Source of the DNA: Pseudomonadota bacterium
Lineage (GTDB): Bacteria; Pseudomonadota; Alphaproteobacteria; RF32; CAG-239
Direction of reading: 5' to 3'
Assembly: GCA_030523245.1 (NCBI GenBank)
Contig: JAUNIW010000006.1
Location: 1 to 38,767 of the forward strand
DNA length: 38,767 nucleotides
Below are positions 3,086 to 32,923 of the stretch, piece by piece; the first letter of the stretch is position 1, and each line of letters begins with the position of its first letter. The notes under the pieces were generated by a model. The model was not told where the DNA came from. It saw only the letters and a list, made by a program, of their open reading frames with translations, and ran no database searches. A program made the translations under genes and the position numbers.

Positions 3086-3388
3086 ATGAAAAGAATCGGT
3101 TTGTTGGCAGTGTTGTTGTTTTTGGGTGCCTGTTCGGATGTGTCCCGATATACAACTGTTTCGCCCAATGCTTCGGTCAGACAGAAAATGCAGGCCTGTA
3201 TGATCAGCGAGGCCAACAGCCGTCTGCAGTCCGGAACTTTGTTTGCCAATACGGTCAGGGCAACTGCGGAAGATATCACCAATACCTGTCTTAAAAAGCT
3301 GGCACTTCAGGCGGCGGGTATCAGTGAAGAATCCCAATCGGCAGCCGAAAATATTATCAATAATCTTAGAGCGCTCAAAAATAACTGA
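3086..3388 (+). CDS. Hypothetical lipoprotein
   Basis: SD AAGGA; signal peptide MKRIGLLAVLLF-LGAC lipobox; two further Cys. Confidence 0.8.
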   Translation: MKRIGLLAVLLFLGACSDVSRYTTVSPNASVRQKMQACMISEANSRLQSGTLFANTVRATAEDITNTCLKKLALQAAGISEESQSAAENIINNLRALKNN

Positions 3389-3444
3389 ATAAATTATTAA
3401 ATATAAAAAAATTCAGAGGATTGCATTTTTCTGCAAATTAGGGT

Positions 3445-3472
3445 TTGACAACTGAAAAAATGTTGTTATGAT
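3445..3472 (+). promoter_or_regulatory. Sigma70 promoter of the tRNA pair
   Basis: TTGACA (3445-50), 16 nt, extended -10 TG-t-TATGAT (3467-72). Confidence 0.8.
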
Positions 3473-3485
3473 GCAACTGTATTTT

Positions 3486-3560
3486 AGTTCCGTGGTGAAA
3501 CGGTTATCACGTATCCTTGACATGGATGAGTCTGCAGTTCAACTCTGCGCGGAACTACCA
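3486..3560 (+). tRNA. tRNA-Val(GAC)
   Basis: Cloverleaf: AGTTCCG/CGGAACT acceptor, GTGA/TCAC D stem, TATCC-TTGACAT-GGATG anticodon arm, TGCAG-TTCAACT-CTGCG T arm, A73, encoded CCA. Confidence 0.93.
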
Positions 3561-3590
3561 CTTTTTAACCGGCCGCTATGGTATTTTTTC

Positions 3591-3665
3591 AGTTCTGTGG
3601 TGAAACGGTTATCACATATCCTTCACATGGATGGGTCGGCAGTTCAACTCTGCCCGGAACTACCA
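3591..3665 (+). tRNA. tRNA-Val(CAC)
   Basis: Same cloverleaf; anticodon loop TTCACAT; T arm GGCAG-TTCAACT-CTGCC; ACCA end. Confidence 0.93.
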
Positions 3666-3692
3666 TAACAAATATCGGATTCATGAAATAAG

Positions 3693-3728: not shown

Positions 3729-3819
3729 AAATGGTTTCAGAATTATAAGTTTAATTTAGACTCGGAATAGACTCAATTCGGATTTCTGTCATTTTTTTTA
3801 AAAAATGTGTATTTTTTGC

Positions 3820-3848
3820 TTGCAATGCCGGATGTGTTGTGATATAAG
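3820..3848 (+). promoter_or_regulatory. Promoter of the S10 operon
   Basis: TTGCAA (3820-25), 17 nt, TATAAG (3843-48). Confidence 0.7.
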
Positions 3849-4009
3849 CACGCTACAACAATTGTTTTGAGGGGGTTGCCCCGCAGCGAAGCAAATATAA
3901 AATATAGCGCAAACCTTTGTTGCGAAAGCGTTTGCAAAATTTAACAAGTTTAGATGGCAGATAACCATAATGGTGTTTTTTGCCGTTTAGTTATAGGAAA
4001 AGTATTAAA

Positions 4010-4318
4010 ATGGATACACAAAACATTAGAATCCGCTTGAAAGCTTTTGACCACAGATTGCTTGATCTCTCTACAGCAGAAATCGTGCATACTGCCAAAA
4101 GAACAGGCGCAAGTGTCAGAGGACCTATTCCTCTGCCTAACAAAATCGAGAAGTTTACGGTAAACCGCTCTCCGCACGTTGATAAAAAATCTCGTGAACA
4201 GTTTGAGATACGTACCCATAAAAGACTTCTGGATATCGTAGATCCGACACCGCAAACAGTTGATGCTTTAATGAAGCTGGATTTGGCTGCCGGTGTTAAT
4301 GTTGAAATTAAGTTGTAA
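4010..4318 (+). CDS. rpsJ: 30S ribosomal protein S10
   Basis: [34 protein letters not shown]; ATG 4010 follows AGGA. Confidence 0.98.
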
Positions 4319-4378
4319 TTTAATGTTGGCGCTTTGAAATAAAAGTTGTCAACCTATTAAGAAAAGGAAAAAATAATA

Positions 4379-5098
4379 ATGCGTACGGGTCTAATCGCAA
4401 AAAAATTAGGAATGTCCCGCATTTTCGAAGCAGACGGAACACATGTTCCCGTAACTGTTTTGAGTGTAGACGGTCTTCAGGTTGTTAATGTAAAAACAGC
4501 CGAGAAAGACGGCTACAATGCCGTTCAGCTTGGTACAGGCGCTATCAAAGCCAAAAACGTAACCAAGCCAATGAAAGGATATTTTGCAAAAGCAAAAGTT
4601 GAACCGAAGAAAAAACTGGGCGAGTTCAGAGTTTCTGCTGAATGCCTGCTTTCCGTCGGTGATGAATTATCTGTAGAACATTTTGTTCCGGGGCAATATG
4701 TTGATGTTTGCGCAACATCTATCGGTAAAGGTTTTGCCGGTGTTATGAAACGTCATAATTTTGCCGGTTTGGAAGCATCTCACGGTGTGTCTATTTCTCA
4801 CCGTTCTCATGGTTCTACAGGACAAAGACAAGATCCGGGTAAAGTTTTCAAAGGTAAAAAAATGGCCGGCCATCTGGGTGCCGAACGCGTTACCGTTCAA
4901 AACCTGAAAGTTGTTGCCATTGATGCCGCAAAAGGCCTGATTATGGTTAAAGGTGGTGTTCCTGGTTGTGAAAACGCTTGGGTAAGAGTTACGGATGCCG
5001 TTAAAAAACCGGCTAATGCCTCTGTCCCGATGCCTGCAGGATTGAAAAAAGTTGATGAACCTGTTGCAGCGGCTGAAGCTCCAGCTGAAAATGCATAG
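4379..5098 (+). CDS. rplC: 50S ribosomal protein L3
   Basis: [38 protein letters not shown]. Confidence 0.98.
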
Positions 5099-5118
5099 TG
5101 AAGTGTAAGGAAAATAAA

Positions 5119-5742
5119 ATGAAACAGGACATCTTAAATTTAGAAAATAAAAATGTCGGCTCAATTGAACTGAATGATGCTATTTACGGTCTGGAAGTTC
5201 GCGCTGATATTTTACAACGCGTTGTAAACTGGCAGTTGGCCAGACTGCAAAGCGGTAATCACCAAACTAAGGGTCGTTCGGATGTTGCTTTGACAGCCGC
5301 CAAACCTTTTAAGCAAAAAGGTTCCGGCAATGCCCGTCAGGGTTCCCGTAAAGGCGCTCAGTTCAGAAAAGGTGGTGTTGTATTTGGTCCGGTTGTAAGA
5401 GATCATTCTTTTGACCTGACTAAAAAATTCAGAAAACTTGGTCTGAAAACTGCTTTGTCTGCAAAAGCAAAAGCAGGAAACCTTGTTGTTATTGACGAAG
5501 CAAAGCTGTCAGCTCCAAAGACAAAAGATTTACAAGCTAAATTGAATGCTTGCGGTCTGACAAACTGCCTCTTCATTGACGGCAAAGAAGTAGATGTTAA
5601 TTTTGCATTGGCCAGCCGTAATATCGCAGGTGTTGACATTCTGCCGACAATCGGTGCCAACGTTTATGACATCTTAAAAAAGGACAAATTGGTGTTAACA
5701 AAAGATGCAGTAAGTTGCTTAGAGGAGAGATTAAATGGTTAA
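5119..5742 (+). CDS. rplD: 50S ribosomal protein L4
   Basis: [22 protein letters not shown]; ATG 5119 after AAGGA. Confidence 0.97.
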
Positions 5743-6049
5743 GAGCAAATCAAACAATGTAACTGCAGCCATGTATGATACATTGGTTCGTCCGGTAATT
5801 ACCGAAAAATCTATGATTTCTTCGGAAGCTGGAAAAGTGGTATTTATTGTGCCTTTATCAGCTACGAAAGATGACGTTAAAGCCGCTGTTGAAGCCATCT
5901 TTAATGTTAAAGTTAATAAGGTAAATACAATTAAACAATTCGGTAAAGTAAAAACCTTTAGAGGACATCAGGGCGTTCGTTCTGATTTCAAAAAGGCCAT
6001 TGTTACGCTTGCCGACGGTCAAAACATTGATGTTACTACAGGAATTTAG
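5735..6049 (+). CDS. rplW: 50S ribosomal protein L23
   Basis: PVITEKS, KKAIVTL; operon position. Confidence 0.97.
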
Positions 6050-6051
6050 TC

Positions 6052-6885
6052 ATGGCTTTGAATACATTTAAGCCCACTTCTGCAGGTCGCCGCCAACTTG
6101 TACTCGTTGATAAAAGCGAGTTATATAAGGGCAAACCTGAGAAAAGTTTAACGAAAGGTCTGAATAAGACCGGTGGGCGTGATAACTTTGGTCACGTTAC
6201 TAGTCGTCGTATCGGTGGCGGTCACAAACGCAGCTATCGTATGATTGACTTCAAACGTAATAAATTTGATTGTGAGGCTGTTGTCGAGAGAATCGAATAT
6301 GATCCAAACCGCACTGCTTTTATCGCGTTGGTAAATTACAATGATGGTGAAAAGGCTTATATTCTGGCTCCGCAACGTTTGAAAGCCGGCGATAAAATCA
6401 TTTCTGCCGAAAAAGCAGATATTAAGCCGGGTAATGCTATGCCTCTGAAGAATATGCCGGTCGGTACAATCGTGCACAACGTTGAACTGCGTTCTGGCAA
6501 AGGCGGACAGCTTGTTCGTTCTGCCGGTTGCTATGCTCAGGTTGTCGGTAAAGATGCCGGTTATGTTCAATTGAAACTAAACTCTGGCGAATTAAGAATC
6601 GTTCGTGAAGAATGTTTGGCAACCGTTGGTGCGGTTTCCAATCCGGATAATCAGAACGTTTCCCTCAGTAAAGCCGGTCGCGCTCGCTGGATGGGTATGA
6701 GACCTGTTTCCCGCGGTGTTGCAATGAACCCGGTTGATCACCCGCTCGGTGGTGGTGAAGGCAGAACTTCAGGTGGCCGTCATCCGGTTACACCTTGGGG
6801 TAAACCGACTAAGGGCGCTAAGACTCGTTCTAACAAGAAGACGGATCGCTTTATTATGAGATCTCGTCATGATAACAAAAATTAA
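6052..6885 (+). CDS. rplB: 50S ribosomal protein L2
   Basis: [30 protein letters not shown]. Confidence 0.99.
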
Positions 6886-6900
6886 TAAGGAGAAATGCTA

Positions 6901-7185
6901 ATGACACGTTCCGTATGGAAAGGACCTTTTGTTGATGGCTATCTTCTGAAGAAAGCTGATGCAGCCAGAGCTTCCAGCCGTAATGAAGTAATTAAAATTT
7001 GGTCCCGCCGTTCTACTATGTTGCCGCAGTTTGTCGGTTTGACATTCGGCGTGCATAATGGCCACAAATTTATTCCGGTTCTGGTAACTGAAGATATGGT
7101 TGGTCACAAATTCGGTGAATTTGCGCCGACACGTACTTTCTATGGTCACACTAAAGCTGCTGATTCTACAGCGAAGAGAGGTTAA
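6901..7185 (+). CDS. rpsS: 30S ribosomal protein S19
   Basis: [23 protein letters not shown]; SD AAGGAG favours ATG 6901. Confidence 0.97.
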
Positions 7186-7187
7186 TT

Positions 7188-7544
7188 ATGGCTAAGTTGA
7201 ATGAAAAGAAAGCTATGGCTGTTTGCCGCTCTATTCGTACCAGTCCGCGTAAATTGAACTTGGTTGCTCAATCTATCCGTGGTTTGGGTGTTGAAAAAGC
7301 TGTTGCAGAATTAAGCTTTTCCAAGAAGAGAATCGCAAAAATTGCATTGGTTTTGCTGCAATCTGCAATTTCCAATGCCGAAAATAATCATAATTTAAAC
7401 ATCGACAAGCTCGTTGTCAGCGAAGCTTATGTCGGTAAAGGTATTGTAATGAAACGTATGAGTGCACGCGGTCGCGGCAGAGGCGCCAGAATTCTGAAGC
7501 CGTTCTCAAGCATGACCGTTGTTGTTGCAGAGCGTGGGGAGTAA
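7188..7544 (+). CDS. rplV: 50S ribosomal protein L22
   Basis: [29 protein letters not shown]. Confidence 0.97.
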
Positions 7545-7548
7545 ACAG

Positions 7549-8217
7549 ATGGGACAGAAAGTAAATCCTACAAGTCTTCGTTTGGGCGTTAACCGCACTT
7601 GGGACTCTCGTTGGTATGCTGATGAAAAGTTTACCGACTATCTCCACGAAGATCTGAAAATTCAAAAATTCCTGAGTGAAAAATTGGCTCAGGCCGGTAT
7701 CAGCCGTATTGTTATCGAACGTCCGGCTAAAAAGGCAAGAGTTACTATTCATTCAGCAAGACCGGGTGTTGTAATTGGCAAAAAGGGTCAGGATATTGAA
7801 AATTTGAGAAAAGATATTCAAAAATTGACTGATTCCGAAGTTCAGTTGAACATCATTGAAGTTAGAAAACCTGAGCTTGATGCGAAGTTGGTTGCCGACT
7901 CGGTTGCTCAGCAGTTGGAACGTCGTGTTTCCTTCCGCCGTGCTATGAAAAGAGTTATGCAGTCTGCTCTTCGTCTGGGTGCAGAAGGTATCAAAGTTTG
8001 CTGCAGTGGTCGTCTGGGCGGTGCCGAAATCGCCAGAACCGAACACTACCGTGAAGGTCGCGTGCCTTTGCACACACTTCGTGCGGACATTGATTATGCA
8101 ACCTCTACAGCTCATACCACTTATGGTGCTTGCGGCGTAAAAGTTTGGATTTATAAAGGCGAAATTATGAGCCACGATCCAATGGCGCAGGACAAAAAGC
8201 TGGCTGAACAAAAATAA
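7549..8217 (+). CDS. rpsC: 30S ribosomal protein S3
   Basis: [31 protein letters not shown]. Confidence 0.98.
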
Positions 8218-8237
8218 TAACATGAGGTTAGAATAAA

Positions 8238-8672
8238 ATGTTAAGTCCAAAACGTTTAAAGTTCCACAAACAGCATAAAGGCCGTATTCACGGTCTGGCC
8301 AAAGGTGGATCAGAATTAAGTTTCGGTTCATATGGATTGAAAGCTCTTACACCTGAACGTGTAACTGCCCGCCAGATTGAAGCTGCGCGTCGTGCTATTA
8401 CCCGTGAAATGAAAAGAGCAGGAAGAGTATGGATTAGAATTTTCCCAGATGTTCCGGTGTCTGACAAACCAGCCGAAGTTCGTATGGGTAAAGGTAAAGG
8501 TGCTATCGAATTTTGGGTAGCAAGAGTTAAACCGGGCCGTATTATGTTTGAAATCGGCGGCGTTCCTGAAGAAGTAGCCCGTAAGGCTTTTGAATTGGGT
8601 GCTGCAAAATTGCCGGTAAAGAGCAAATTCGTGAAGCGTTTGAACTCTGATGCTGTAGAAGGAGAAGCATAA
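8238..8672 (+). CDS. rplP: 50S ribosomal protein L16
   Basis: [22 protein letters not shown]. Confidence 0.98.
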
Positions 8673-8869
8673 TGGTTAAAACTAAAGATTTACGCGCTAT
8701 GACTAATGATCAGTTGGAAGAAAAATTGATTGCCGATAAAAAAGAACAGTTCAATTTGAGAATCCAACAGTCAACAGGCCAACTGAAAGATATTTCTAAT
8801 ATGAAGAAAGTTCGCCGTGAAGTAGCAAAAATCAACACGCTCCTTGCCGAGCGCAAGAAGAATAGTTAG
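8672..8869 (+). CDS. rpmC: 50S ribosomal protein L29
   Basis: [24 protein letters not shown]; position. Confidence 0.95.
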
Positions 8870-8879
8870 GAGAAAGAAT

Positions 8880-9116
8880 ATGCCTAAGAGAATTCTTCAA
8901 GGTGTTGTTGTAAGTGATAAACAGGACAAAACTGTCGTTGTCAGTGTTGAACGTCAGGTTATGCATCCGGTTTATAAGAAAATCGTGAAAAAAAGTAAAA
9001 AGTTTGCTGCTCACGATGAAAACAATCAGTGCAAGGTTGGTGATAGAGTGTCCATTCAAGAATGCCGCCCTATTTCCAAAAATAAATCTTGGACTGTCAT
9101 TTCTGATAACGCCTAA
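8880..9116 (+). CDS. rpsQ: 30S ribosomal protein S17
   Basis: [25 protein letters not shown]. Confidence 0.97.
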
Positions 9117-9135
9117 TAAATGAAGGAATAAAAAA

Positions 9136-9504
9136 ATGATACAAATGCAAACCAACCTAGATGTTGCTGATAATTCTGGAGCACGCCAGGTGCAGTGCAT
9201 AAAGGTTCTTGGTGGTTCCAAGAGAATGACTGCCTCTGTCGGTGATGTTATCGTTGTCGCAGTACAAGATGCTTTGCCGAAAGGGCACGTTAAAAAAGGT
9301 GATGTACATAAGGCCGTTATCGTAAGAACAGCCAGTGACATCAGACGTAAAGACGGTAGTGTTATCCGTTTTGACAGCAATGCAGCCGTTCTGATTAACA
9401 AAGACGGTGAACCAATCGGTACACGTATCTTTGGTCCTGTAACCAGAGAGCTGCGCGCTAAAAAATTTATGAAAATCATTTCATTAGCACCGGAGGTATT
9501 GTAG
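9136..9504 (+). CDS. rplN: 50S ribosomal protein L14
   Basis: [27 protein letters not shown]. Confidence 0.99.
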
Positions 9505-9505
9505 T

Positions 9506-9814
9506 ATGCCTAAAATGAAAATTAAGAAAAACGATACAGTTATTGTTCTGTCGGGTGACGATAAAGGCAAAATCGGTGTCGTAAAACAAGCAATGCCTAA
9601 GGAAAACAAGGTTATTGTCGAAGGCGTTAATTTAGTTAAACGTCACACAAAACCTTCTGATAAAAATCCGGGCGGGATTGTAACAAAAGAGGCTGCCATC
9701 AACGTATCTAACGTTGCTATTGCCAAAGACGGCAAAGCAACAAAAGTCGGATACAAAGTCGTTGACGGCAAAAAAGTACGTTTTGCACGTAAATCCGGTG
9801 ACGTAATCGATTAA
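9506..9814 (+). CDS. rplX: 50S ribosomal protein L24
   Basis: KOW motif [25 protein letters not shown]. Confidence 0.97.
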
Positions 9815-9828
9815 TAGGGGAAAATTTT

Positions 9829-10368
9829 ATGGCAAATTTTGAAACATTATATAACGACGTCATAAAGAAATCTCTTGTGGAAAAATTCGGTTACAAGAAC
9901 CCACATGAGATTCCAAAGCTGACAAAAATCGTTTTGAATATGGGTATCGGCGATGCCGTTACCGATAAGAAAAAAGTAACGACCGCTATGGAAGAGTTGG
10001 CTTTGATTGCCGGACAACAGCCGGTTATGACTAAAGCCCGCAAGTCTATTGCTACCTTCAAATTGCGTGAAGGTATGCCGATTGGCTGCAAAGTTACACT
10101 GCGTTCCGAAAAAATGTATGAATTTTTGGAAAGACTGGTTAATATGGCCTTGCCGCGAATCAGAGACTTCCACGGAATTACGGGTAAGAACTTCGATGGC
10201 AGAGGAAACTTCGCTTTCGGTATTAAAGAACAGATAATCTTTCCTGAAATCAACTATGAAAAAGTTGATGAAATCAGAGGATTGGATGTTGTTATTTGTA
10301 CAACAGCTAAGACAGATGAAGAAGCTAAATTTTTGCTGACTTCATTCAACCTGCCTTACAAGAAATAA
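9829..10368 (+). CDS. rplE: 50S ribosomal protein L5
   Basis: [31 protein letters not shown]. Confidence 0.98.
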
Positions 10369-10382
10369 GCGGAGATTTTACT

Positions 10383-10688
10383 ATGTCAAAAACAAGTTCG
10401 GTTTACAGAAACTTGAAAAGAGTAAAGATGGCTGAGAAGTATGCTAATCGCCGTCAAAAACAAAAAGCAATTGCGATGGATAAAAATGCTTCTCCGGAAG
10501 AAAGAATGCAGGCGCAGTTTGCTTTGCAAAAATTTCCTAAGAATTCTGCCAGATGCCGTATCAGAAATCGTTGCAGAATTACGGGACGTTCACGCAGTTA
10601 TTACAGAAAATTTGGCCTGAGCCGTGTTGAATTGAGAGATTTGGCAAGCTTTGGTAAAATTCCTGGTTTAGTAAAATCAAGTTGGTAA
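10383..10688 (+). CDS. rpsN: 30S ribosomal protein S14 (long form, no zinc ribbon)
   Basis: [19 protein letters not shown]; 101 aa. Confidence 0.97.
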
Positions 10689-10705
10689 GAAGGGAGAATG
10701 ATATC

Positions 10706-11104
10706 ATGTCTATGAGTGATCCTTTGGGCGATATGCTCGCACGCATTAAAAACGCACAAAGAGCTAAGAAGAGTGATGTTGTATCACCTGCTTCTCGCTT
10801 GCGTGAAAATGTGTTAGAAGTTTTGAAAAGAGAAGGCTACATTGCCGGTTATGAAAAAACCAATGTACGTCCGGGTATTGATGAACTTCATATTCAATTA
10901 AAGTACTACGAAGGTAGTGCCGTTATTACTGAAATTTACCGTGTATCTACGCCGGGTCGTCGCGTTTATTCCAGCGTTAAAGACCTGCCGAGAGTTTACA
11001 ACGGCCTTGGTATTTCCATTATTTCTACCCCGATGGGTGTTATGAGTGATAATGAAGCGCGTAAGGCCAATGTTGGCGGTGAAGTTTTGTGCCAAGTATT
11101 CTAA
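10706..11104 (+). CDS. rpsH: 30S ribosomal protein S8
   Basis: [27 protein letters not shown]. Confidence 0.97.
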
Positions 11105-11116
11105 GGAGAAAACAGT

Positions 11117-11653
11117 ATGTCAAGAGTTGGTAAATATCCTGTTGTTGTTCCTGCTGGCGTAGAATTAACCATCAATAACAACGTTGTAACCGCAAAAGGT
11201 AAATTAGGCGAACTTCATTTTGCCTTTGACGACAGCCATGTTTCAGCTAAGCTGGAAGACGGTAAAGTTGTTGTCACACCACATTCTCTGAGCCTGACAG
11301 CCAGAGCTTTGTGGGGCACAACCCGCGCTCAGATTCAAACCATTGTAAAAGGTGTGAGCGAAGGTTTTACAAAAGATATGGAACTTGTCGGCGTGGGTTA
11401 TAAAGCCCGTGTAGAAGGCAAAAATCTCGTTTTGTCTTTAGGCTTTTCGCATGATGTGGTTTTTCCGGCACCGGAAGGTGTGAAAATTACGTGCGAATCT
11501 CCGACACAAATTAAAATCTTTGGTGCCGACAAACAGCTGGTTGGTCAAGTTGCCGCTGAATTGCGCAAATACAGAAAACCTGAACCTTATAAAGGTAAAG
11601 GTGTGAAGTATGCCGGTGAAGCCGTTCGTCGTAAAGAAGGTAAGAAGAAATAA
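11117..11653 (+). CDS. rplF: 50S ribosomal protein L6
   Basis: [17 protein letters not shown]. Confidence 0.98.
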
Positions 11654-11664
11654 GGAATAATTCA

Positions 11665-12027
11665 ATGAATACACCAAGAAATTTGTTTGAGAGAAGAAAG
11701 GCTCGTGTTAGATCTGCAATTAAAGCAGCTGCAAACAGCAAATTGAGATTATCTGTTTTCCGCAGCGGCAAGCATATCTATGCACAAATCATTGACGATG
11801 TAAAAGGCTCAACAGTTGCTTCCGCTTCTACTCTGGATAAGGAAGTCAGAGCTAACATCAAAAAATCTTCTACAGTTGAAGCTGCCGGCTTCATTGGTAA
11901 ATTAATTGCTGAAAGAGCAACAAAATCCGGTATTTCCGAAGTGGTTTTTGACCGCGGCGGTTATATCTATCACGGTCGTGTTAAAGCTTTGGCCGATGCT
12001 GCTCGTGAAGCTGGTCTGAAATTCTAG
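11665..12027 (+). CDS. rplR: 50S ribosomal protein L18
   Basis: [31 protein letters not shown]. Confidence 0.98.
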
Positions 12028-12036
12028 GAGAGAAAG

Positions 12037-12603
12037 ATGGTACAATCTACAGATCGTCATAATTCTAAAAAAGAAGTAAAAGATGAATTGGTTGAAAAAC
12101 TGGTTCATGTAAACCGTGTTGCCAAAACAGTAAAAGGCGGCCGTACAATGTCATTTGCCGCGGTTGTTGTTGTCGGGGATCAGAAAGGCCGTATCGGATT
12201 TGGTTCCGGTAAAGCTGCCGAAGTTCCTGAAGCTATTGTTAAAGCAACCAATGAAGCCAAAAAGAATATGATTCGTATTCCGCTTCGTGAAGGCAGAACA
12301 TTGCATCATGACGTCGCTGGTCGTTTCGGGGCCGGAAAAGTTGTTCTGAGAACAGCTCCTGCCGGTACCGGTGTTATTGCCGGCGGTCCGATGCGTGCCG
12401 TGTTTGAAGTTTTGGGCGTACAGGATGTTGTTGCAAAATCTTTGGGCTCCAACAATCCTTACAATATGATTAAAGCTACTTTTGCTGCTTTACAGGCAAT
12501 CAATTCTCCGAGAATGGTTGCTACAAAACGCGGTAAAAAAGTAGGTGATATTGTGAGCCGCCGTGAAAACACAACCGGTAAAGAAGTGAAAGAGGAGGCA
12601 TAA
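12037..12603 (+). CDS. rpsE: 30S ribosomal protein S5
   Basis: [29 protein letters not shown]. Confidence 0.98.
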
Positions 12604-12606
12604 TCT

Positions 12607-12792
12607 ATGGCTGCTAATAAAACTATCAAAGTTACCAGAACTGGTAGCACAATCGGTCGTCCGGCTATTCAGGAAACTCACCTGAAAAGTCTGGGGTTAA
12701 CAAAAACAGGCCGCACAGTTGTTGTAGAAGATACACCGGCAATTCGCGGTTTGATTAAAAAAGTGGCTCATCTGGTTAAAGTTGAAGAATAA
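12607..12792 (+). CDS. rpmD: 50S ribosomal protein L30
   Basis: LGL.K.GRTV, TPAIRGLIKKVAHLV. Confidence 0.95.
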   Translation: MAANKTIKVTRTGSTIGRPAIQETHLKSLGLTKTGRTVVVEDTPAIRGLIKKVAHLVKVEE

Positions 12793-12884
12793 TTTTGTGA
12801 GCCTGTGTTTGTTAATTTGTAAATGAAGGCAGGCTCGCAGAAATTTCTTGATTGAATCAGACTAAACTATATAAGGTAAATAAA

Positions 12885-13346
12885 ATGAAACTGAATGAAT
12901 TAAAAGATAACGAAGGTGCGACAAAAAATCGTAAACGCGTTGGTCGTGGTATCGGTTCCGGTAAAGGCAAAACCTGCGGTTTAGGCCACAAGGGTCAGAA
13001 AGCCCGTTCCGGTGGTGCCAAAATGGGTTTTGAAGGCGGTCAAATGCCTTTATACCGTCAGTTGCCAAAGCATGGCTTTAAGAATCCGTTTGCAAAGACT
13101 TATGCCGTTGTAAATCTGGATACGATTCAAAAAGCTATTGATGCCGGTAAATTGGACGCCAAAGCTATTGATGTTGAGTCTTTGTTGAAGTCAAATGTTG
13201 TTTCCAAGCAATTGGACGGCATTCGTCTGCTGGCTCGCGGTGCTGTTACCAGCAGCATCAATATCACAGTCGACTCTGCTTCTAAATCAGCTGTTGAAGC
13301 TGTAGAAAAAGCAGGCGGCAAAGTTAATTTTGTTGCTGCAAAATAA
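12885..13346 (+). CDS. rplO: 50S ribosomal protein L15
   Basis: [29 protein letters not shown]. Confidence 0.97.
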
Positions 13347-13371
13347 TTAAAGTTATTTGCTAAAATTATTA

Positions 13372-13412
13372 AAAATCCCCGTTCAGATGAATGGGGATTT
13401 TCTATTTTTTTT
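13372..13412 (+). terminator. Intrinsic terminator after rplO
   Basis: AAAATCCCCGTTC-agat-GAATGGGGATTTT followed by a T run. Confidence 0.85.
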
Positions 13413-13413
13413 C

Positions 13414-13442
13414 TTTACTTTTGTTCTGTCTTTGTTTAATAT
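13414..13442 (+). promoter_or_regulatory. Promoter of pilin cassette 1
   Basis: TTTACT-17 nt-TAATAT; same motif and spacing at 18702-18730. Confidence 0.7.
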
Positions 13443-13449
13443 TTTAGGT

Positions 13450-13636
13450 GGATGACGGATAGTTTATCTGGGGTGTGACAACCTCTTGAAGATACGTCTT
13501 TATGCAAAGACGCTAAATAAGCATACCTTCTGGTCTATGGATCGGAAGGTAGCAAAATGTGCTATGTGCTAATATGCTACACTGCATTATCTTCAGCAGT
13601 TGTCAACTTCCGGTCGTCTTTTTAGACGGCTTTTTT
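13450..13636 (+). ncRNA. Unrecognised structured leader RNA/ncRNA, copy 1, ending in an intrinsic terminator
   Basis: 5' hairpin 13450-69; TGACAAC/GTTGTCA; TGAAGATA/TATCTTCA; inner hairpins 13495-512, 13524-551, 13557-587; terminator GGTCGTCT-tttt-AGACGGCT-T run; topology shared with copy 2. Confidence 0.7.
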
Positions 13637-13663
13637 ATTGTTAATCTTAAAAAGGAAGTTGTT

Positions 13664-14269
13664 ATGAATTTTAATCAATCGGGGCGTTCAATGATAGAAA
13701 TGCTTGGTGTGTTAGCCATTATTGCCGTGTTGTCTGTTGGTGGTATTGCGGGGTATTCAAAAGCAATGCAGCAATGGAAACTGAATAAATGGAAAGCGCA
13801 AATTACAGATATAATCTTTGCGCTTAAAGACGTTTATAAAAATGAAAAAAATTTTGGCAGCAATGGCATTAATCTTTTGCCTTTTTTGAAAGGAATAGGA
13901 GTGGTTCCGCAAGGTATGCTGGATGAGAACAATAAAGATTTATTTGGAAATACTGTATCAATAAATATTCGAGCCGATGGATTGGCAGATGGTTCAATAC
14001 TTCAGCGTTTTGCTGTATATTTTTCTACCCGGCCATCAGTAACGGCAGAGCAAAATTGCCGTGAGCTTTATTCTTTTGCGCAAACAGATCCTGATGTTCA
14101 TGCAGTGGTTAATTGGGCTAACGGATATCGTACTTGCGGTAAATATGTAGAAGATGCGTATAAACAAGTAATGCCTTGCCATGAATATAATATGCAGGAG
14201 GTCGCAAAAAAGTGTAAAGTTTGCCAAGAACGTTCTTGTACTTTGATTCTTTTGTACAGAAATAACTAA
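13664..14269 (+). CDS. Type IV pilin-like protein with non-canonical G|RSMIE N-terminus
   Basis: SD AAGGA; MNFNQSG|RSMIEMLGVLAIIAVLSVGGIAGY with Glu+5 and hydrophobic helix; 6 Cys in the C-terminal domain. Confidence 0.88.
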   Translation: MNFNQSGRSMIEMLGVLAIIAVLSVGGIAGYSKAMQQWKLNKWKAQITDIIFALKDVYKNEKNFGSNGINLLPFLKGIGVVPQGMLDENNKDLFGNTVSINIRADGLADGSILQRFAVYFSTRPSVTAEQNCRELYSFAQTDPDVHAVVNWANGYRTCGKYVEDAYKQVMPCHEYNMQEVAKKCKVCQERSCTLILLYRNN

Positions 14270-14413
14270 AATGTCTATCGAATCGAAAAAAGTGTAGAAA
14301 AACTGAGGATAAAGATAAATTAGTTGCAAAAAAAATATTTTTGTGTAATAGATTAAAGCCAAGTGGGTTTTTATAACCCTATGTTTTGTTTTTAAAATTT
14401 TAAGGATTAAAAA

Positions 14414-15763
14414 ATGGTATCATTAGCAGAAAAAATGGCGGCCAATATTGATATGTCTGCCTTTAGCAAAGCCGACGAATTAAAGAAAAGACTTTGGTTT
14501 ACGGTATGGGCTTTGATTATTTTCCGTTTAGGCACATATATTCCGCTTCCGGGCATCAACCCTGCGGTATTGGCTGAAATGTTCAGTCGGAATCAAGGCG
14601 GTATTTTGGGAATGTTTAATATGTTTTCCGGTGGTGCATTGGAACGTATGACGATTTTTGCCCTGAATATTATGCCGTACATTTCCGCTTCCATTATTAT
14701 CCAGCTCGGTCAGTCGGTTATTCCGTCTTTAATGGCTTTGAAAAAAGAAGGGGAAGCCGGTCATCGTAAAATTACGCATTATACAAAATGCCTGACGGTT
14801 TTGATTACGATAATTCAAGGTTATGGTATTGCCGTCGGTCTGGAAAGTGTTTCCGGTGCCAATGGCGCATCTGCCGTAATGATTGACAGTTTTGCCTTCA
14901 GATTTTCGACCATTGTTTCTCTGGTCGGCGGTACCATGTTTATTGTCTGGCTGGGAGACCAGATTACACAGCGTGGTGTCGGTAATGGTTCTTCCCTGAT
15001 TATTACCGTTGGTATTATCGCCAATATACCGAATGCTTTGGCTCAGACTTTTGAACTGGGGCGTGCCGGTCAGATGTCGGTTATGACGATTTTGATGCTG
15101 TTGGTAATGGCTTTGGCTTTGATTTATGTTATAGTGTTTGTTGAAAGAGCACAAAGAAAGATTATTATTCAATATCCGAAGCGTCAGATGGGTATGCGCA
15201 TGATGGCTGCGGAAAGTTCTCACCTGCCGTTGAAAATTAACCCGACAGGCGTTATTCCGCCTATCTTTGCCAGCTCTTTGCTGCTGCTGCCGATTACAAT
15301 TGCAAATTTATCTGCCGAAAAAGGTCCGTCATGGGTACAGAGTCTGAGTCAGATGCTGGGACATGGTCAGCCTGTTTATCTGGCCTTGTATGCCTTTTTG
15401 ATTCTGTTCTTTACCTTCTTTTATACCTCAGTGGTATTTAATCCTCAGGAGACGGCGGATAATCTGAAGAAACACGGCGGATTTATTGCCGGTATCCGTC
15501 CGGGTAAAAATACGGCCGAATATCTGGATTATGTGATTACGCGTTTAACGGTGATTGCGTCTATTTATCTGGTTTGTTTGTGTATTTTGCCTGAACTGCT
15601 TATCAGCAAAGTCGGTGTACCGTTTGTTCTGGGTGGCACAACACTGCTCATCGTTGTGCAGGTAACAATGGATTTTGTCGGACAAATTCAGTCGCATCTG
15701 ATTGCTTATCAGTATGAGGGACTTTTGAAAAAAGCGGCTTTGATTAAAAAGAAAGGGCGTTAA
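14414..15763 (+). CDS. secY: Preprotein translocase subunit SecY
   Basis: IFALNIMPYISASII, GVGNGSSL, GVIPPIFASS, GIRPG, GGTTLLIVV. Confidence 0.99.
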   Translation: MVSLAEKMAANIDMSAFSKADELKKRLWFTVWALIIFRLGTYIPLPGINPAVLAEMFSRNQGGILGMFNMFSGGALERMTIFALNIMPYISASIIIQLGQSVIPSLMALKKEGEAGHRKITHYTKCLTVLITIIQGYGIAVGLESVSGANGASAVMIDSFAFRFSTIVSLVGGTMFIVWLGDQITQRGVGNGSSLIITVGIIANIPNALAQTFELGRAGQMSVMTILMLLVMALALIYVIVFVERAQRKIIIQYPKRQMGMRMMAAESSHLPLKINPTGVIPPIFASSLLLLPITIANLSAEKGPSWVQSLSQMLGHGQPVYLALYAFLILFFTFFYTSVVFNPQETADNLKKHGGFIAGIRPGKNTAEYLDYVITRLTVIASIYLVCLCILPELLISKVGVPFVLGGTTLLIVVQVTMDFVGQIQSHLIAYQYEGLLKKAALIKKKGR

Positions 15764-16431
15764 TGTCTGAAACAAAGAAAGGCTTATATGTTGTTTTTAC
15801 CGGTGCTCCGGGGTGCGGTAAAGGAACACAGGCTCGAATTCTGAAAGAAAAAACTCATATCTGTCATTTATCGACAGGAGAAATGCTGAGGGAGTATGCA
15901 TCAAAGGATACTCCCTTGGGTCGTGATTTAAAAAAGCTTTTGGATAAAGGCGAGTTTGCTACCGATGAGATGATTATTGAAATGGTGCGTAACCGCATCG
16001 GTCAGCCGGATTGCGAACGAGGATTTATTCTGGACGGTTTTCCGCGGACACTTCCGCAGGCCGAAGTTTTGGAAGGTCTGTTAGCGGAAAAGGGAATTAA
16101 ATTAAATTGCGTTTTGGAGATTCAGGTTCCGGATGAAATCATTATGGAACGTATTCTGGGACGATATTCATGCTTAAAATGCGGTGCCGGTTATCATGAT
16201 AAATTCCAAAAACCTAAAGTTTACGGCGTCTGTGATGTTTGCGGCGGAACGGAATTCGGCCGCCGGAAAGATGACAATCGTGCGACGGTACAGAATCGTC
16301 TGGTTAACTATCGTCTGCTGACCTATCCGACAATCCAGTTTTTTGAAAAACGGGGGTTGCTGCGTACGGTTGACGGTACCGGAACGATTGAGGCGGTCAG
16401 TCACAAAATTGATGAGATTCTCGGTTTGTAA
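15763..16431 (+). CDS. adk: Adenylate kinase with zinc-binding LID
   Basis: GAPGCGKGTQA, LDGFPRT, CLKC...CDVC. Confidence 0.98.
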   Translation: MSETKKGLYVVFTGAPGCGKGTQARILKEKTHICHLSTGEMLREYASKDTPLGRDLKKLLDKGEFATDEMIIEMVRNRIGQPDCERGFILDGFPRTLPQAEVLEGLLAEKGIKLNCVLEIQVPDEIIMERILGRYSCLKCGAGYHDKFQKPKVYGVCDVCGGTEFGRRKDDNRATVQNRLVNYRLLTYPTIQFFEKRGLLRTVDGTGTIEAVSHKIDEILGL

Positions 16432-16435
16432 AATT

Positions 16436-16460
16436 GCCGGCCGTCAAAGGCCGGTTTTGT
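16436..16460 (+). terminator. Probable terminator after adk
   Basis: GCCGGCC-gtcaaa-GGCCGGT-TTTGT. Confidence 0.65.
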
Positions 16461-16586
16461 ATATATTCTAAAGTTTTGGTTTTAGATATTTTTCAGCATA
16501 AGTACCGTTTGAGGTTAAAAACATCATATACTTTGTTTTATTTGCAAAAATATGTAAAAAAATTTAAGTAATTTGCAGAAAAGGGG

Positions 16587-16615
16587 TTGACTCTGATAAA
16601 TATCGTGCCTATAAT
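16587..16615 (+). promoter_or_regulatory. Promoter of the alpha operon
   Basis: TTGACT-17 nt-TATAAT. Confidence 0.85.
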
Positions 16616-16686
16616 CCGCTTAATTTTGAAAAGTGGTGATCAACTTTTTGAATGTATTAATTAATTGAAAGTAATGGAGATTAAAT

Positions 16687-17055
16687 TTGGCTCGTATAGC
16701 TGGTGTAAATATTCCAAGTGCCAAGAGAATTGAAGTCGCACTGACTTATATCTTCGGTATTGGTAGAAAATCTGCTCAAGATATTTGTGCAAAGTCAGGA
16801 ATTGATATGAACCGTCGTGTCAGTCAGCTTTCTGATGAAGAAATCATGAAAATCCGCGAAGTAATCGATAACGGATACCTTGTAGAAGGTGAACTCCGTC
16901 GTGAAGTCGGTACCAACATTAAGAGATTGATGGATTTGGGTTGCTATCGTGGTTTAAGACATCGTAAAGGCTTGCCTGTTCGCGGTCAGAGTACAAAACA
17001 AAATGCTCGTACCCGTAAAGGTAAACGCAAAACCGTTGCAAATAAGAAGAAATAA
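16687..17055 (+). CDS. rpsM: 30S ribosomal protein S13 (TTG start)
   Basis: [24 protein letters not shown]; SD GGAG. Confidence 0.98.
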
Positions 17056-17070
17056 GTGAGGTAAGTGCAA

Positions 17071-17457
17071 ATGGCTAAAGCAGTTCTGAAAAAGAAAAAA
17101 GAAAAAAAGAATATCACTTCCGGTGTAGCTCACGTTGATTCTTCTTTTAACAACACAAGAGTTACAATTACGGATGCTCAGGGAAATACCGTGTCTTGGT
17201 CTACAGCCGGTGCGCAGGGTTTTAAAGGTTCTAGAAAATCTACGCCTTATGCCGCACAGATTGCCGCTGAAGAAGCTGGTAAAAAGGCTCAGGAAAATGG
17301 TATGAAAACTCTGGAAGTAGAAGTTAAAGGACCAGGGTCAGGCAGAGAGTCTGCAATTCGCGCATTGCAGGTAATCGGTTTTACAATCACAACAATTCGT
17401 GATGTAACCCCAATTCCGCATAATGGTTGTCGTCTGAGAAAAAGACGTCGCGTCTAG
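17071..17457 (+). CDS. rpsK: 30S ribosomal protein S11
   Basis: [24 protein letters not shown]. Confidence 0.98.
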
Positions 17458-17467
17458 TTATTATTTT

Positions 17468-17505
17468 GGCACAGGCCTTTTTCAAGGCCTGTTGCCGTGT
17501 TTTTT
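17468..17505 (+). terminator. Terminator-like hairpin between rpsK and rpoA
   Basis: GGCACAGGCCTT-tttc-AAGGCCTGT(T)GCC then GTGTTTTTT. Confidence 0.6.
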
Positions 17506-17543
17506 ATATGTACATGTAACTTTTCTAGAAAAGGACAAAACCG

Positions 17544-18554
17544 GTGATTCAAAAGAATTGGCAAGAACTTATTAAACCAACTAATTTGCAAGTTTCTCAA
17601 GATGAGGCTGCTCATAAAGCAAAGATAGTGGTTGAACCTTTAGAGAGAGGCTTTGGCCTTACTTTAGGTAATGCGTTGAGAAGAGTTTTACTGTCCTCTC
17701 TGCAGGGCGGAGCTGTTTCCGCTATTAAAATTGACGGTGTTTTGCATGAATTTTCCGTTATTCCTGGCGTACGCGAGGATGTGACGGATATTGTGCTGAA
17801 CATCAAAGAATTGGCGGTTGCCGTTCACTCGGAAAGCGCAAAAACAATGACATTGAAAGCTGAAGGTCCTTGTGTGGTCACGGCAGCTATGATTGAAACC
17901 GGTCACGATGTCGAAATTATGAATCCGGAGCATGTGATTTGCACATTGGATGCCGGTGCAAAAATCAATATGGAATTGACGGTTACAACAGGTAAAGGCT
18001 ATGTTCCGGCTTATAACAGCAAGTCGGCAGATGCTCCGATTGGTTTAATCGCCGTAGATGCTATTTATTCTCCGGTTACAAAAGTTTCATACAAAGTTGA
18101 AAATACCCGCGTTGGTCAGATTACCGATTATGATAAGCTGACAATGAACGTTGAAACCAACGGCGTTGTTTCTCCGGAAGATGCTGTTGCATTGGCTGCG
18201 CGTATTCTGCAAGACCAGCTCAAACCGTTTATCAACTTTGACGAACCGGAAAGCGAATCGGAAGATATTCATGAAGAATTGCCGTTTAACCGCAATCTGC
18301 TGCGTAAGGTTGATGAGCTTGAATTGTCTGTTCGTTCGGCAAATTGCCTGAAAAATGATAACATCATCTATATTGGTGATTTGGTTCAAAAGACTGAAGC
18401 AGAAATGCTGCGTACACCTAACTTTGGCCGTAAATCTTTGAATGAAATCAAAGAAGTGCTGGCTAAAATGGGAATTCATCTGGGTATGGAAACACCGGGA
18501 TGGCCGCCTGAAAATATTGAAGAATTGATAAAGCGGTGTGATGAGCATTTCTAA
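17544..18554 (+). CDS. rpoA: RNA polymerase alpha subunit (GTG start)
   Basis: [43 protein letters not shown]. Confidence 0.99.
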
Positions 18555-18591
18555 AATCTGAGTTAATGGCGTAATCAGCGCCGGACACTGT

Positions 18592-18647
18592 AAAAGAGAG
18601 AAAATTTATGTACTTTGTGTGCAGTTATTTTCTCTCTTTTTTGTTTT
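18592..18647 (+). terminator. Long hairpin/terminator after rpoA
   Basis: Perfect 14-bp inverted repeat AAAAGAGAGAAAAT/ATTTTCTCTCTTTT followed by TTGTTTT. Confidence 0.7.
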
Positions 18648-18701: not shown

Positions 18702-18730
18702 TTTACAATTTTAGTTTGTTTGGCTAATAT
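18702..18730 (+). promoter_or_regulatory. Promoter of pilin cassette 2
   Basis: TTTACA-17 nt-TAATAT; matches 13414-13442. Confidence 0.7.
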
Positions 18731-18737
18731 TATAAAT

Positions 18738-18922
18738 GGATAAACGATAGTTTATTCAGGGCGTGAGACCCCTTTGTTCTGTCGGTCGCAAAGGCGACCT
18801 AAAATATGTCGATGTCTGTTGGTCGGATGTCGGCTAAATACGGTTATATACCAAATAGGTCGAGCCGTAGACAGATACGGTGTCTCAACATCCGCCCGCT
18901 TTTATATGGCGGGTTTTTGTTT
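18738..18922 (+). ncRNA. Unrecognised structured leader RNA/ncRNA, copy 2, ending in an intrinsic terminator
   Basis: GGATAAAC-gata-GTTTATTC; TGAGAC/GTCTCA; TCTGTC/GACAGA; inner hairpins 18784-99, 18808-34, 18839-69; terminator GCCCGCT/GGCGGGT plus T run. Confidence 0.7.
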
Positions 18923-18946
18923 AGGTAAATAAGCGGGGTTGAGAAA

Positions 18947-19582
18947 ATGTATCAGGTGTTTAAAAGCGGCAGCAGTGCTGAACATACGGGCAGAACTGTT
19001 TCGTATGGCGGCCGCTCCATGATTGAAATGTTGGGCGTACTGGCCATTATCGGCGTTTTATCCGTCGGCGGAATTGCCGATTATTCAAAAGCCATGCAGC
19101 GGTTTAAGTTTAATAAGTGGCGGCAACAGATAGAAGATTTGATTTTTTCTGTTAAAGAAGCATACAGATTTGGCGGTCGGTATGGTACGGGAAACGAAAA
19201 TATTTTACCGGTTTTAAAGGATATCGGAGCCGTTCCGCAGGATATGCTGGATAAAAATAATAAGGATTTATTTGGCAATGACGTACGTTTGGTAATGAAA
19301 CCGCTTGATATCTATAACCGACTGAATTTGCAGTTTATTACAGAACCAAATGAAGATGCGGTGCAAGTTTGTCACGATTTATTTTATATGGCAATGATGT
19401 ACCCGAATGATATCTGGACGACGGTAGTTTGTAAAGGCTTTAATTGTAACGGGGCTTGGCTTTTCAGAATATGCGGAAAAGTTGCACCGAAAGGATATGG
19501 CGGCAATGAGTGTCAGGACTATAATCTTACTAAAGTTATGTCTGTTTGTAATATATGCGCAACAAATGTGTGTACTCTTTAG
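18947..19582 (+). CDS. Type IV pilin-like protein, paralogue of 13664..14269; probably truncated by a premature TAG
   Basis: G|RSMIEMLGVLAIIGVLSVGGIADYSKAM; shared block LP.LK.IG.VPQ.MLD.NNKDLFGN; 8 Cys; homologous frame continues to 19606. Confidence 0.85.
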   Translation: MYQVFKSGSSAEHTGRTVSYGGRSMIEMLGVLAIIGVLSVGGIADYSKAMQRFKFNKWRQQIEDLIFSVKEAYRFGGRYGTGNENILPVLKDIGAVPQDMLDKNNKDLFGNDVRLVMKPLDIYNRLNLQFITEPNEDAVQVCHDLFYMAMMYPNDIWTTVVCKGFNCNGAWLFRICGKVAPKGYGGNECQDYNLTKVMSVCNICATNVCTL

Positions 19583-29632: not shown

Positions 29633-30838
29633 TCAGGCGACCTGTCTGGATTTTTGTTTGAGTAAAACCGAAGGCATTGTCCGTGACATAATACATTTGC
29701 GTTCCCGTTCGTCAGTCAGTCCTATCATTGTTTCTTTGGCCAGATGCATATCGCGGGAAATAACCAGTGCCTGAATATCTGTCGGCAGTTGTTTAATCAT
29801 CTCGGAATTCGGATTGATACGTTCTCCGTCCGGACTGCGGTAAGGCACGTCATGAATGCAGCAGGCAATCATAAACATCTGTCTGAGTTCGGCCGACATC
29901 GGATGGTGCGAATCGGCGGTATAGTTGCTGAAATCAAGTCCGATGTCACTTTTTTCGGCCTGTTCGACAATATTGTTTACGGTCTGGGCCAGATTTCTGT
30001 TGTGGCCGGCATTGTTTTTTTCAATCAACTGATGTATTTGTATTTTCAGCGGAATGCTCTGCCGCAGATAATTTCTGCGTTCAGATGGCGGAATGTCATG
30101 AAGAACCGTCTGGGACAGCATATCTAAAACATCTTCCCTGAAGTGTGCCAATTTGGCCTGAAGCGGCTTGGTCTTCAAATAGGCCAATAAATGTTCACGG
30201 CGGTCTGATGTTTCTATTTTTTGCATTAAATCCGTTATTTGCGGCAAGAACTCATCTTTATTGATTTTACCCCTGTTGTATTTGCTGAATAAATGAATCA
30301 ACAATTTTTCAGGACAAGTATGATTCCAGTCTTTTTTAATGGTCAGGATATCCTCACGGCGGGATTGACGCCAGGCTTCTCTTTCCAGATGATTCATCGT
30401 ACCGGTCAAAGCCTTTTCCTTCAGGGCATCACGCAACAACCGGTGAGCCGAAAGCTCATAGGCGGCTTGTCTGCTGTAACCGGCAATCATGGCTTCCATA
30501 AACAAGGCACCGGCCATAACCTCTTCAGGAGATGGCGGAGGCGGAAGCAGGCGTGCTTTTTCTTCTTCCGGTTTTGGTGGTTTACGGCCGCTGGCTATCT
30601 CCCGCAGAACCTGTTCTTTGCCGGTAGCTGCCAGATACATAATTTCTTGCGGAACTTTTCCGCCAAAAGCCGCACGAATCGCATACGGCACTTTTATCCA
30701 TATATGAAAAGTATCTTTATGCTCATCAAAAATACGGCTGAGTTTTTCGGGTTTAACATCGTCGGAGCAAGCCAAAATGTAATCCGTGGGGTGATTTGTC
30801 CGCAAGAATTCTAAGAAATCATCATCAAATCCATTCAT
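29633..30838 (-). CDS. Hypothetical protein (401 aa)
   Basis: Long ORF with SD AAGGAGG; Pro-rich stretch; no family recognised. Confidence 0.8.
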   Translation of the reverse strand: MNGFDDDFLEFLRTNHPTDYILACSDDVKPEKLSRIFDEHKDTFHIWIKVPYAIRAAFGGKVPQEIMYLAATGKEQVLREIASGRKPPKPEEEKARLLPPPPSPEEVMAGALFMEAMIAGYSRQAAYELSAHRLLRDALKEKALTGTMNHLEREAWRQSRREDILTIKKDWNHTCPEKLLIHLFSKYNRGKINKDEFLPQITDLMQKIETSDRREHLLAYLKTKPLQAKLAHFREDVLDMLSQTVLHDIPPSERRNYLRQSIPLKIQIHQLIEKNNAGHNRNLAQTVNNIVEQAEKSDIGLDFSNYTADSHHPMSAELRQMFMIACCIHDVPYRSPDGERINPNSEMIKQLPTDIQALVISRDMHLAKETMIGLTDERERKCIMSRTMPSVLLKQKSRQVA

Positions 30839-30872
30839 GGCTTACCTCCTTTAATTTTGCAGCGAAAGAAGT

Positions 30873-32855: not shown

Positions 32856-32923
32856 GATTTTCTCCTTTATTACCTGTAGTTTAACACAATTTTTGTATTT
32901 TGTCTATAAATTTGTGTAAAAAA

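Follow-up and report, generated by a model that had tools for sequence, protein, structure and literature searches.

The window analysed here is a stretch of 38,767 nucleotides (nt; contig JAUNIW010000006.1 of assembly GCA_030523245.1, positions 1 to 38,767 of the forward strand) from an alphaproteobacterium of the GTDB lineage RF32; CAG-239. Within it, a pilin-like gene headed by a promoter and a structured leader RNA lies between rplO and secY, two genes whose neighbourhood is one of the most stable in bacteria. The 1,067 nt that separate the end of rplO (13346) from the start of secY (14414) hold, in order, the rplO terminator, a promoter, the leader RNA with a terminator of its own, the pilin-like gene (pilin1) and the secY promoter (Table 1). 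All of these elements were located where an original prediction, made from the letters of the window and a list of its open reading frames (ORFs), had placed them, and the pilin unit is self-contained in the sense described there, with its own promoter, leader and terminator followed by the gene. A second unit was likewise found after a terminator downstream of rpoA. The prediction had further proposed that the unit splits the spc operon and that promoter, RNA and pilin move or duplicate together as a cassette, forming a dispersed repertoire of surface antigens.

Table 1. Features of the rplO-secY spacer, the second pilin unit and the synteny blocks of the window (aa, amino acids; UTR, untranslated region).
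Feature	Position	Strand	Evidence or remark
Block A	3755-13401	+	S10 cluster to rplO terminator; collinear at 91-92% identity in 5 close relatives
rplO (ribosomal protein L15), last gene of block A	12885..13346	+	Pfam Ribosomal_L27A, E 9.9e-21
rplO intrinsic terminator	13372..13412	+	13-bp stem 13372-13401, then T-run (terminator scan)
Pilin-unit promoter (candidate)	13414..13442	+	TTTACT (13414-13419), 17-nt spacer, TAATAT (13437-13442)
Type A structured leader RNA	13440..13638 (RNA itself from about 13447)	+	model R1, 184.7 bits, E 1.5e-48
Intrinsic terminator of the leader	13612-13631 and T-run	+	terminator scan
pilin1 ORF, 201 aa	13664..14269	+	Shine-Dalgarno AGGAAG; N-terminal pilin-type matches below cut-off
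secY promoter and 5' UTR	14304..14413	+	conserved with secY in 10/10 genus sequences, whatever lies upstream
Block B: secY, adk, adk terminator (16436-16455)	14414..16455; homology limits 14286/14298 to 16419/16436	+	Pfam, terminator scan
Block C: promoter (16587-16615), rpsM, rpsK, rpoA, hairpin (18589-18643)	16551..18646; homology end 18556/18646	+	
Second unit, after rpoA	18702..19582	+	promoter 18702-18730: TTTACA, 17-nt spacer, TAATAT
Second unit, type B leader	18728-18922; terminator 18894-18914	+	model R1, 148.2 bits
Second unit, pilin2, 211 aa	18947-19582	+	49% identical to pilin1
Block D: ddl	from 19603		

The promoter assigned to the pilin unit agrees with the consensus at only 8 of 12 positions, for which reason it did not appear in the promoter-scan list; the same -35 and -10 boxes and the same spacing recur in paralogous units. 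A 465-nt contig from an RNA library covers 13435-13899; it begins near the predicted start, crosses the leader terminator and ends within the pilin1 ORF. This is a weak hint of transcription, as such contigs show neither starts nor strand nor level and the library may hold DNA. The same run left 13083-13387 uncovered, to which no weight was given. Upstream of secY, a -35 box (TTGCAA, 14324-14329), a -10 box (TAATAG, 14346-14351) and the Shine-Dalgarno sequence AAGGAT were identified together with a covarying hairpin in the 5' UTR (14365-14379). A stretch of about 110 nt that includes TTGCAA accompanies secY in all nine genus relatives examined, and GTTGCA is invariant in the ten genus sequences upstream of secY. 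Since both box and hairpin are conserved upstream of secY across the genus, the promoter that had been suggested at TTGCAA is well supported. The conserved secY block begins at 14286-14304 and carries an UP-like element in addition to the two boxes and the hairpin.

A covariance model of the leader (R1) was built from nine copies in this genome, which align as two sequence types, A and B. Folding these with RNAalifold gave a 5' hairpin and, upstream of the terminator, three inner hairpins closed by two long-range helices (P1 and P2). In P1, GGGG-TGT-N7 pairs with N7'-AACTTCC, where N7 differs from copy to copy. In an alignment of 28 distinct sequences from this and other genomes, fitted to the model, compensatory changes were found in 34 of 44 pairs; 92.8% of cells pair, as compared to 35-47% with the partners slid, and none of 500 shuffles attained the values observed for the leader. 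An alternative helix between the 3' strand of hairpin P4 and a segment at the 5' foot of the terminator excludes the main fold and is itself 96% paired in nine sequences, with compensatory changes in 5 of its 9 pairs. A small local hairpin that competes with P1 is 94% paired (9 sequences). Around its terminator, the leader therefore has two folds that are conserved and exclude each other.

Judged from its sequence, the leader is a putative attenuator. It resembles terminator/antiterminator leaders in that it is a structured 5' leader with covarying helices and a competing pairing, has an intrinsic terminator immediately upstream of the ribosome-binding site and precedes pilins as well as further surface genes. 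Unlike known riboswitch and attenuator leaders, it matches no Rfam family, is about 190 nt long, has a long-range closing helix whose sequence varies by copy and is found in up to at least 49 copies per 1.5-Mb genome. In Rfam 15, no gathering-level match was obtained in the window except for two tRNAs, and the leader of the first unit gave chance-level hits only. Membership in sRNA-Xcc1 (RF02221) was not counted, at 21.2 bits against a threshold of 53 (E 0.29) and for the second unit only. An antiterminator of the NusG-paralogue (RfaH/LoaP) type was dismissed, as the search for a trans-acting factor returned a single NusG match in the genome. A riboswitch of the class II type for cyclic diguanylate (c-di-GMP) stands ahead of pilA1 in Clostridioides difficile. 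The genome examined here encodes two GGDEF proteins, and as nothing ties either of them to the leader RNA, c-di-GMP as the trigger was set aside as speculation.

The product of pilin1, 201 aa in length, is similar to type IV (IVb-like) prepilins. Its N-terminus reads MNFNQSG followed by RSMIEMLGVLAIIAVLSVGG..., and the arrangement in MNFNQSG-RSMIEMLGVLAIIAVLSVGGIAGY, a short leader peptide up to the Gly, Glu at +5 and then about 20 hydrophobic residues, is that of a class III signal peptide. Among 43 homologues there is little or no variation at G7, at E12 and in the helix, and the Cys residues at 132, 184, 187 and 192 are invariant in the homologue alignment; residue +1 is an unusual Arg. Matches to pilin libraries were weak throughout. 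N_methyl (PF07963) scored 16.9 bits on pilin1 and 12.9 bits on pilin2 against a cut-off of 21.2, TIGR02532 scored 15.6 bits on pilin1 against 16.3, and Bundlin, at 16.3 bits, also fell below its cut-off. An Atlas cluster was found at a score of 0.95 with Bundlin and PilS domains, and PilS_N was present on 3 of 120 homologues among the matches listed. A profile of the 43 homologues yielded only weak matches to the N-terminal helix in the PDB, where 6 of 10 hits were pilins (E 0.02-0.76), geopilin, PilA, TcpA and PpdD among them; nothing relevant was returned for the single pilin1 sequence. Pilus machinery is encoded elsewhere in the genome, namely a prepilin peptidase (Peptidase_A24, contig C60), a PilB-type ATPase (T2SSE, 222.6 bits, contig C42) together with three more T2SSE matches above cut-off, and a Secretin (contig C42).

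Taken together, the N-terminal motif, the weak matches and the machinery genes suggest that pilin1 is a type IV pilin of IVb-like kind. It is like the type IVb pilins BfpA/bundlin, PilS and TcpA in its leader peptide ending in Gly, Glu at +5, hydrophobic helix and Cys-rich C-terminal part, and the weak matches of its family are to Bundlin, N_methyl, PilS_N and TcpA. It differs from them in that these matches lie below curated cut-offs, in that +1 is Arg and not Phe, Met or Leu, and in having 19 to at least 40 paralogues that are dispersed and separately equipped with promoter and leader. The pilin1 family comprises at least 7,634 cluster representatives at E <=1e-5. More than 627 matching stretches were found in species-representative genomes, where record titles are mostly those of metagenome-assembled genomes of "uncultured Alphaproteobacteria bacterium". 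Public bins with the family that are titled Lachnospiraceae, Bacteroidaceae, Eubacteriales or [Ruminococcus] gnavus (L165, L168, L176 and L220) were also encountered; these are probably mislabelled or mixed and not a true occurrence outside the Alphaproteobacteria.

The 1.45-Mb genome, assembled in 97 contigs, contains 19 pilin-like paralogues, in agreement with the dispersed surface-gene repertoire that had been anticipated. It also contains 19 matches to model R1, 11 of them ahead of pilins and 8 ahead of other ORFs or of no clear ORF, contrary to the idea that the RNA is part of a pilin-specific mobile unit. The other genes headed by the leader include an 850-aa autotransporter-like ORF, MBOAT-like and capsule-export-like ORFs (all named by eye from sequence), a repeat-rich small ORF and a 161-aa ORF preceded by a tandem leader pair. 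The tandem leaders (contig C48:5957-6160 and 6261-6469) are separated by about 100 nt, and each has an upstream repeat of its own; the ORF that follows is not a pilin. Conversely, 8 of the 19 pilin paralogues, one of which is truncated by a contig end, have no R1 match. In the closest relative, G012, a pilin-motif ORF follows at least 18 of 20 sampled high-scoring leaders, a sample biased to the type from which the model was built. Pilins are the main cargo of the leader and not its sole cargo. The leader RNA itself was detected in 49 of 50 genomes of the genus (1 to at least 49 copies each), in 79 of 81 genomes of the order representing 18 of 18 genera, and in 14 of 121 genomes of a class-wide sample, this genome included.

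Comparison of the 11 leader-pilin units revealed nucleotide similarity that begins at about -40 of the leader, ends +86 nt beyond the conserved Gly codon (about codon 35) and never goes past the pilin body or reaches the 3' end or the flanks. The shared stretch is 65-88% identical, with most pairs at 65-80% and the best pair at 88.5% over 87 nt. As the paralogues share promoter, leader and N-terminal coding sequence as one block, the family did expand together with its regulatory region. Of the proposed duplication of promoter, RNA and pilin as a unit, the part up to the N-terminus thus stands. A literature search, at the level of listings and abstracts, returned nothing on the leader RNA, the pilin family or a pilin insertion between rplO and secY.

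The content of the rplO-secY site was then compared between genomes. In the genus, rplO was found in 23 of 24 relatives and 20 of the loci could be resolved; secY lies within 700 nt of rplO in none of the 20. It is on the same strand downstream at 757 nt in G017, about 851 nt in G024, 1,566 nt in G002, 2,752 nt in G016 and 4,463 nt in G008, and is inverted relative to rplO in G011, G001 and G018, while in the remaining relatives secY was not found in the stretch downstream of rplO that was fetched. Of 26 loci from other genera of the family, 12 have a gap of <=375 nt and 4 one of 854-1,360 nt; the remaining 10, one of them truncated by a contig end, lack secY within 1.5 kb. In all six more distant members of the class the two genes are adjacent. 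The break is consequently ancestral to the genus, genus-wide and recurrent in the family, and was not caused by this one insertion. The pilin unit does lie between rplO and secY, but the claim that it splits the operon does not hold beyond that.

Such a break is unusual. In the part of a study of Gammaproteobacteria and Bacilli (PMC8046335) drawn on here, insertions between operons and loss of their concatenation occur, and secY is outside the spc operon in one species only, Bacillus selenitireducens. Unlike the cases in that part of the text, the break described here falls within spc at rplO and secY, holds for a whole genus and recurs across the family, and it is joined by further cuts between adk and rpsM and between rpoA and rplQ, with surface-gene units at the cuts.

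Neither is the pilin gene fixed at the site across the lineage, which would have counted against the original prediction, as what follows rplO varies among the genus relatives. A leader and pilin were found there in G012 and G019, pilins without an R1 match in G014, G004, G021 and G006, a reversed leader with a 107-aa ORF in G017 and two leader-headed ORFs in G020. This occupation by different pilins and leader-headed genes in either orientation, along with the position of both window units directly after terminators, is what would be expected of an autonomous or trans-mobilised cassette in which promoter, RNA and pilin insert after terminators by a recombinase or RNA mechanism encoded elsewhere. 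The remaining evidence, however, makes dedicated mobility of this kind unlikely. As had been noted in the original prediction, no transposase or integrase domain is present among the 28 ORFs of the window, and at the unit ends neither terminal repeats nor a target duplication nor attC were found, but only short A/T-rich repeats of <=15 nt at chance level. Near the ends lie an imperfect inverted repeat of 15 nt (13408-13422 / 14288-14302) and a direct repeat of 10 nt (at 13301 and 14293). Both were treated as chance, since they are A/T-rich, since 32 pairs of this kind occur in 1.15 kb and since the second unit has neither. No near-identical copies exist among the 11 leader-pilin units, and their ends are not common to different copies. 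The genome does encode four tyrosine recombinases (Phage_integrase), two of them of about 310 aa and thus XerC/D-like in size, but all reside on other contigs (C92, C43, C26 and C15). In addition, the restriction of similarity to the promoter, leader and N-terminus, the presence of the leader ahead of non-pilin genes and a homology breakpoint inside the gene in G019 speak against a cassette with defined ends. The pilin unit does not look like an autonomous mobile element, and the proposed self-mobility is not supported. Integron or classical shufflon readings were likewise rejected, as the units are dispersed, have their own promoters and have no adjacent recombinase.

The junction of pilin1 and secY is unique to this genome when compared to its five closest relatives and the assembly is rich in repeats, as would be the case if the contig were a chimera joined through a repeat and rplO-pilin1 were not linked to secY. 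In sequencing runs of two public studies, Logan contigs of 19.4 kb and 24.9 kb nevertheless cover 12900-14700 unbroken with 3 and 5 differing letters, although one of them may come from the window's own source sample. These single contigs span the junction and speak for the assembly. The stretch at the junction (14270-14304) is not repeated, and secY is found downstream of rplO on the same strand in five other genus members. A misassembly is therefore very unlikely.

Beyond the spacer, the first 20 kb of the window consist of four blocks that are apart from one another in each of the five closest relatives (Table 1). The S10-spc-alpha cluster is cut into S10 to rplO, secY-adk, rpsM-rpsK-rpoA and rplQ. 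The last of these, encoding L17, is detached from rpoA and found beside a thioredoxin gene (trx) on another contig (C92:59568-59858). The secY-adk block is located elsewhere in each of the five relatives. In G012, the same trx gene that adjoins rplQ here is followed by two pilins, secY, adk and then a leader and pilin, and in G014 and G004 the order is nusG, two pilins and secY. The gap between adk and rpsM (16432-16686, 255 nt) holds the adk terminator and a promoter with 11 of 12 consensus matches, and is a synteny breakpoint also in G012, G014 and G004. Homology of the S10-rplO block extends to 14300 in G012, where the whole pilin1 unit is common at 91% identity. In G019 it extends to 13768-13812 and so takes in the leader and the conserved N-terminus of the pilin; the rest of the gene there belongs to a different pilin type. 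In G014, G004 and G058 it stops at 13401, in the rplO terminator. The breakpoints thus coincide with the rplO terminator, with the end of the conserved pilin N-terminus and with a point about 30 nt after the pilin stop codon, and these positions favour recombinational shuffling over transposition.

From these results we infer that recombination is the means by which the units spread, and the reading preferred here joins three elements: an attenuator-controlled pilin of a dispersed regulon, a ribosomal cluster cut into autonomous units, and recombination that exchanges both. We assign it a probability of about 0.6. The unit promoter would drive the leader of about 190 nt up to its intrinsic terminator, and the pilin-like gene would be reached by read-through transcripts only. 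The unit would belong to a large, dispersed family of surface-protein genes headed by the leader; most of these are pilin paralogues, in which the N-terminal helix hardly varies and the bodies do. The separately promoted and terminated pieces of the S10-spc-alpha cluster would leave gaps that act as permissive, fast-changing sites where such units accumulate. Recombination would exchange and reorder units and flanks, probably at the shared promoter, leader and N-terminus sequence and at transcription-unit boundaries.

Several observations weigh against this joint reading. The alternative helix and the terminator stem have only about 2 nt in common, which makes the label of antiterminator insecure. 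Pilin membership rests on N-terminal matches below threshold. In G019, secY is found directly after recR with no pilin between, and the comparison yielded no reciprocal product such as a single crossover would leave. Exact-match tracts among the 11 leader-pilin units are short, with a median of 14 nt and a maximum of 31 nt, and reach >=20 nt in only 9 of 55 unit pairs; the units are for this reason poor substrates for RecA-type recombination today. Finally, unrelated genes, neither pilin nor R1 leader, follow rplO in 11 of the 20 genus relatives, from which it follows that the rplO-secY break does not need a pilin unit.

The last two observations equally suit another account in which the gap, once the rplO terminator and the secY promoter existed, became a neutral place for any rearranged or horizontally acquired DNA to settle, pilin units are found there as the most numerous accessory genes, and repeats play no role. 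Block limits at terminators and promoters, not at repeats, in three of the five close relatives, where the S10-rplO block ends at 13401, are also in its favour. We grade accretion at a permissive site as a serious rival, doubtful on two accounts. The breakpoint in G019 falls exactly at the end of the conserved N-terminal coding segment of the pilin. Moreover, the secY block has pilins to either side in this genome (G000) and in G012, and upstream in G014 and G004, which for about 20-45 units per 1.5 Mb and three or four junctions seems to be above chance.

A further-reaching version of the recombination reading can be entertained tentatively, as a possibility, in which the leader-pilin units constitute a shufflon distributed over the whole genome. 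Crossovers in the segment that the units share, from promoter through leader to N-terminus, would swap the variable domains between loci and at the same time break and reorder the S10-spc-alpha cluster, and the leader would represent a new riboswitch-like class of RNA gating which members of the repertoire are expressed. With 20 to at least 49 copies per 1.5 Mb, the units outnumber every other dispersed repeat of these small genomes. Gene conversion between pilE and pilS in Neisseria and the PilV shufflon of R64 are established systems of pilin variation. Like them, the units described here have constant N-terminal and variable C-terminal coding sequence, with an interspecies breakpoint exactly at the border. 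Unlike in Neisseria pilE/pilS, every copy has a promoter, leader, start codon and full ORF and there are no silent cassettes. Unlike in the R64 shufflon, the copies are dispersed, neither clustered nor inverted around sfx-type sites, and no Rci-type recombinase is adjacent.

A whole genus of uncultured Alphaproteobacteria has here cut the S10-spc-alpha cluster at three places, with variable surface genes at the cuts. Because each piece acquired its own promoter and terminator, the genus offers a tractable case of how an essential operon tolerates fragmentation, and it bears on the question of whether a large repeat-like family of surface genes drives genome rearrangement. Widespread and absent from Rfam, the structured leader RNA appears to control a large and variable pilus repertoire in a common uncultured gut lineage.

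Some further features of the window were recorded. Just upstream of the S10 cluster lie two tandem, near-identical tRNA genes of 72 nt (3486-3557 and 3591-3662) that are 34 nt apart, and the stretch around them (3086-3666) maps to varying places in the relatives. Three consecutive ORFs of 401, 660 and 397 aa on the minus strand (29636-34117), situated between core genes, matched no Pfam family at E <=1e-5. The segment 1169-2871 contains an ORF with an RHH domain, a Methyltransf_4 ORF and an HTH_3 ORF. It adjoins the S10-rplO block in five relatives in opposite orientation at only 73-75% identity, which suggests a local inversion.

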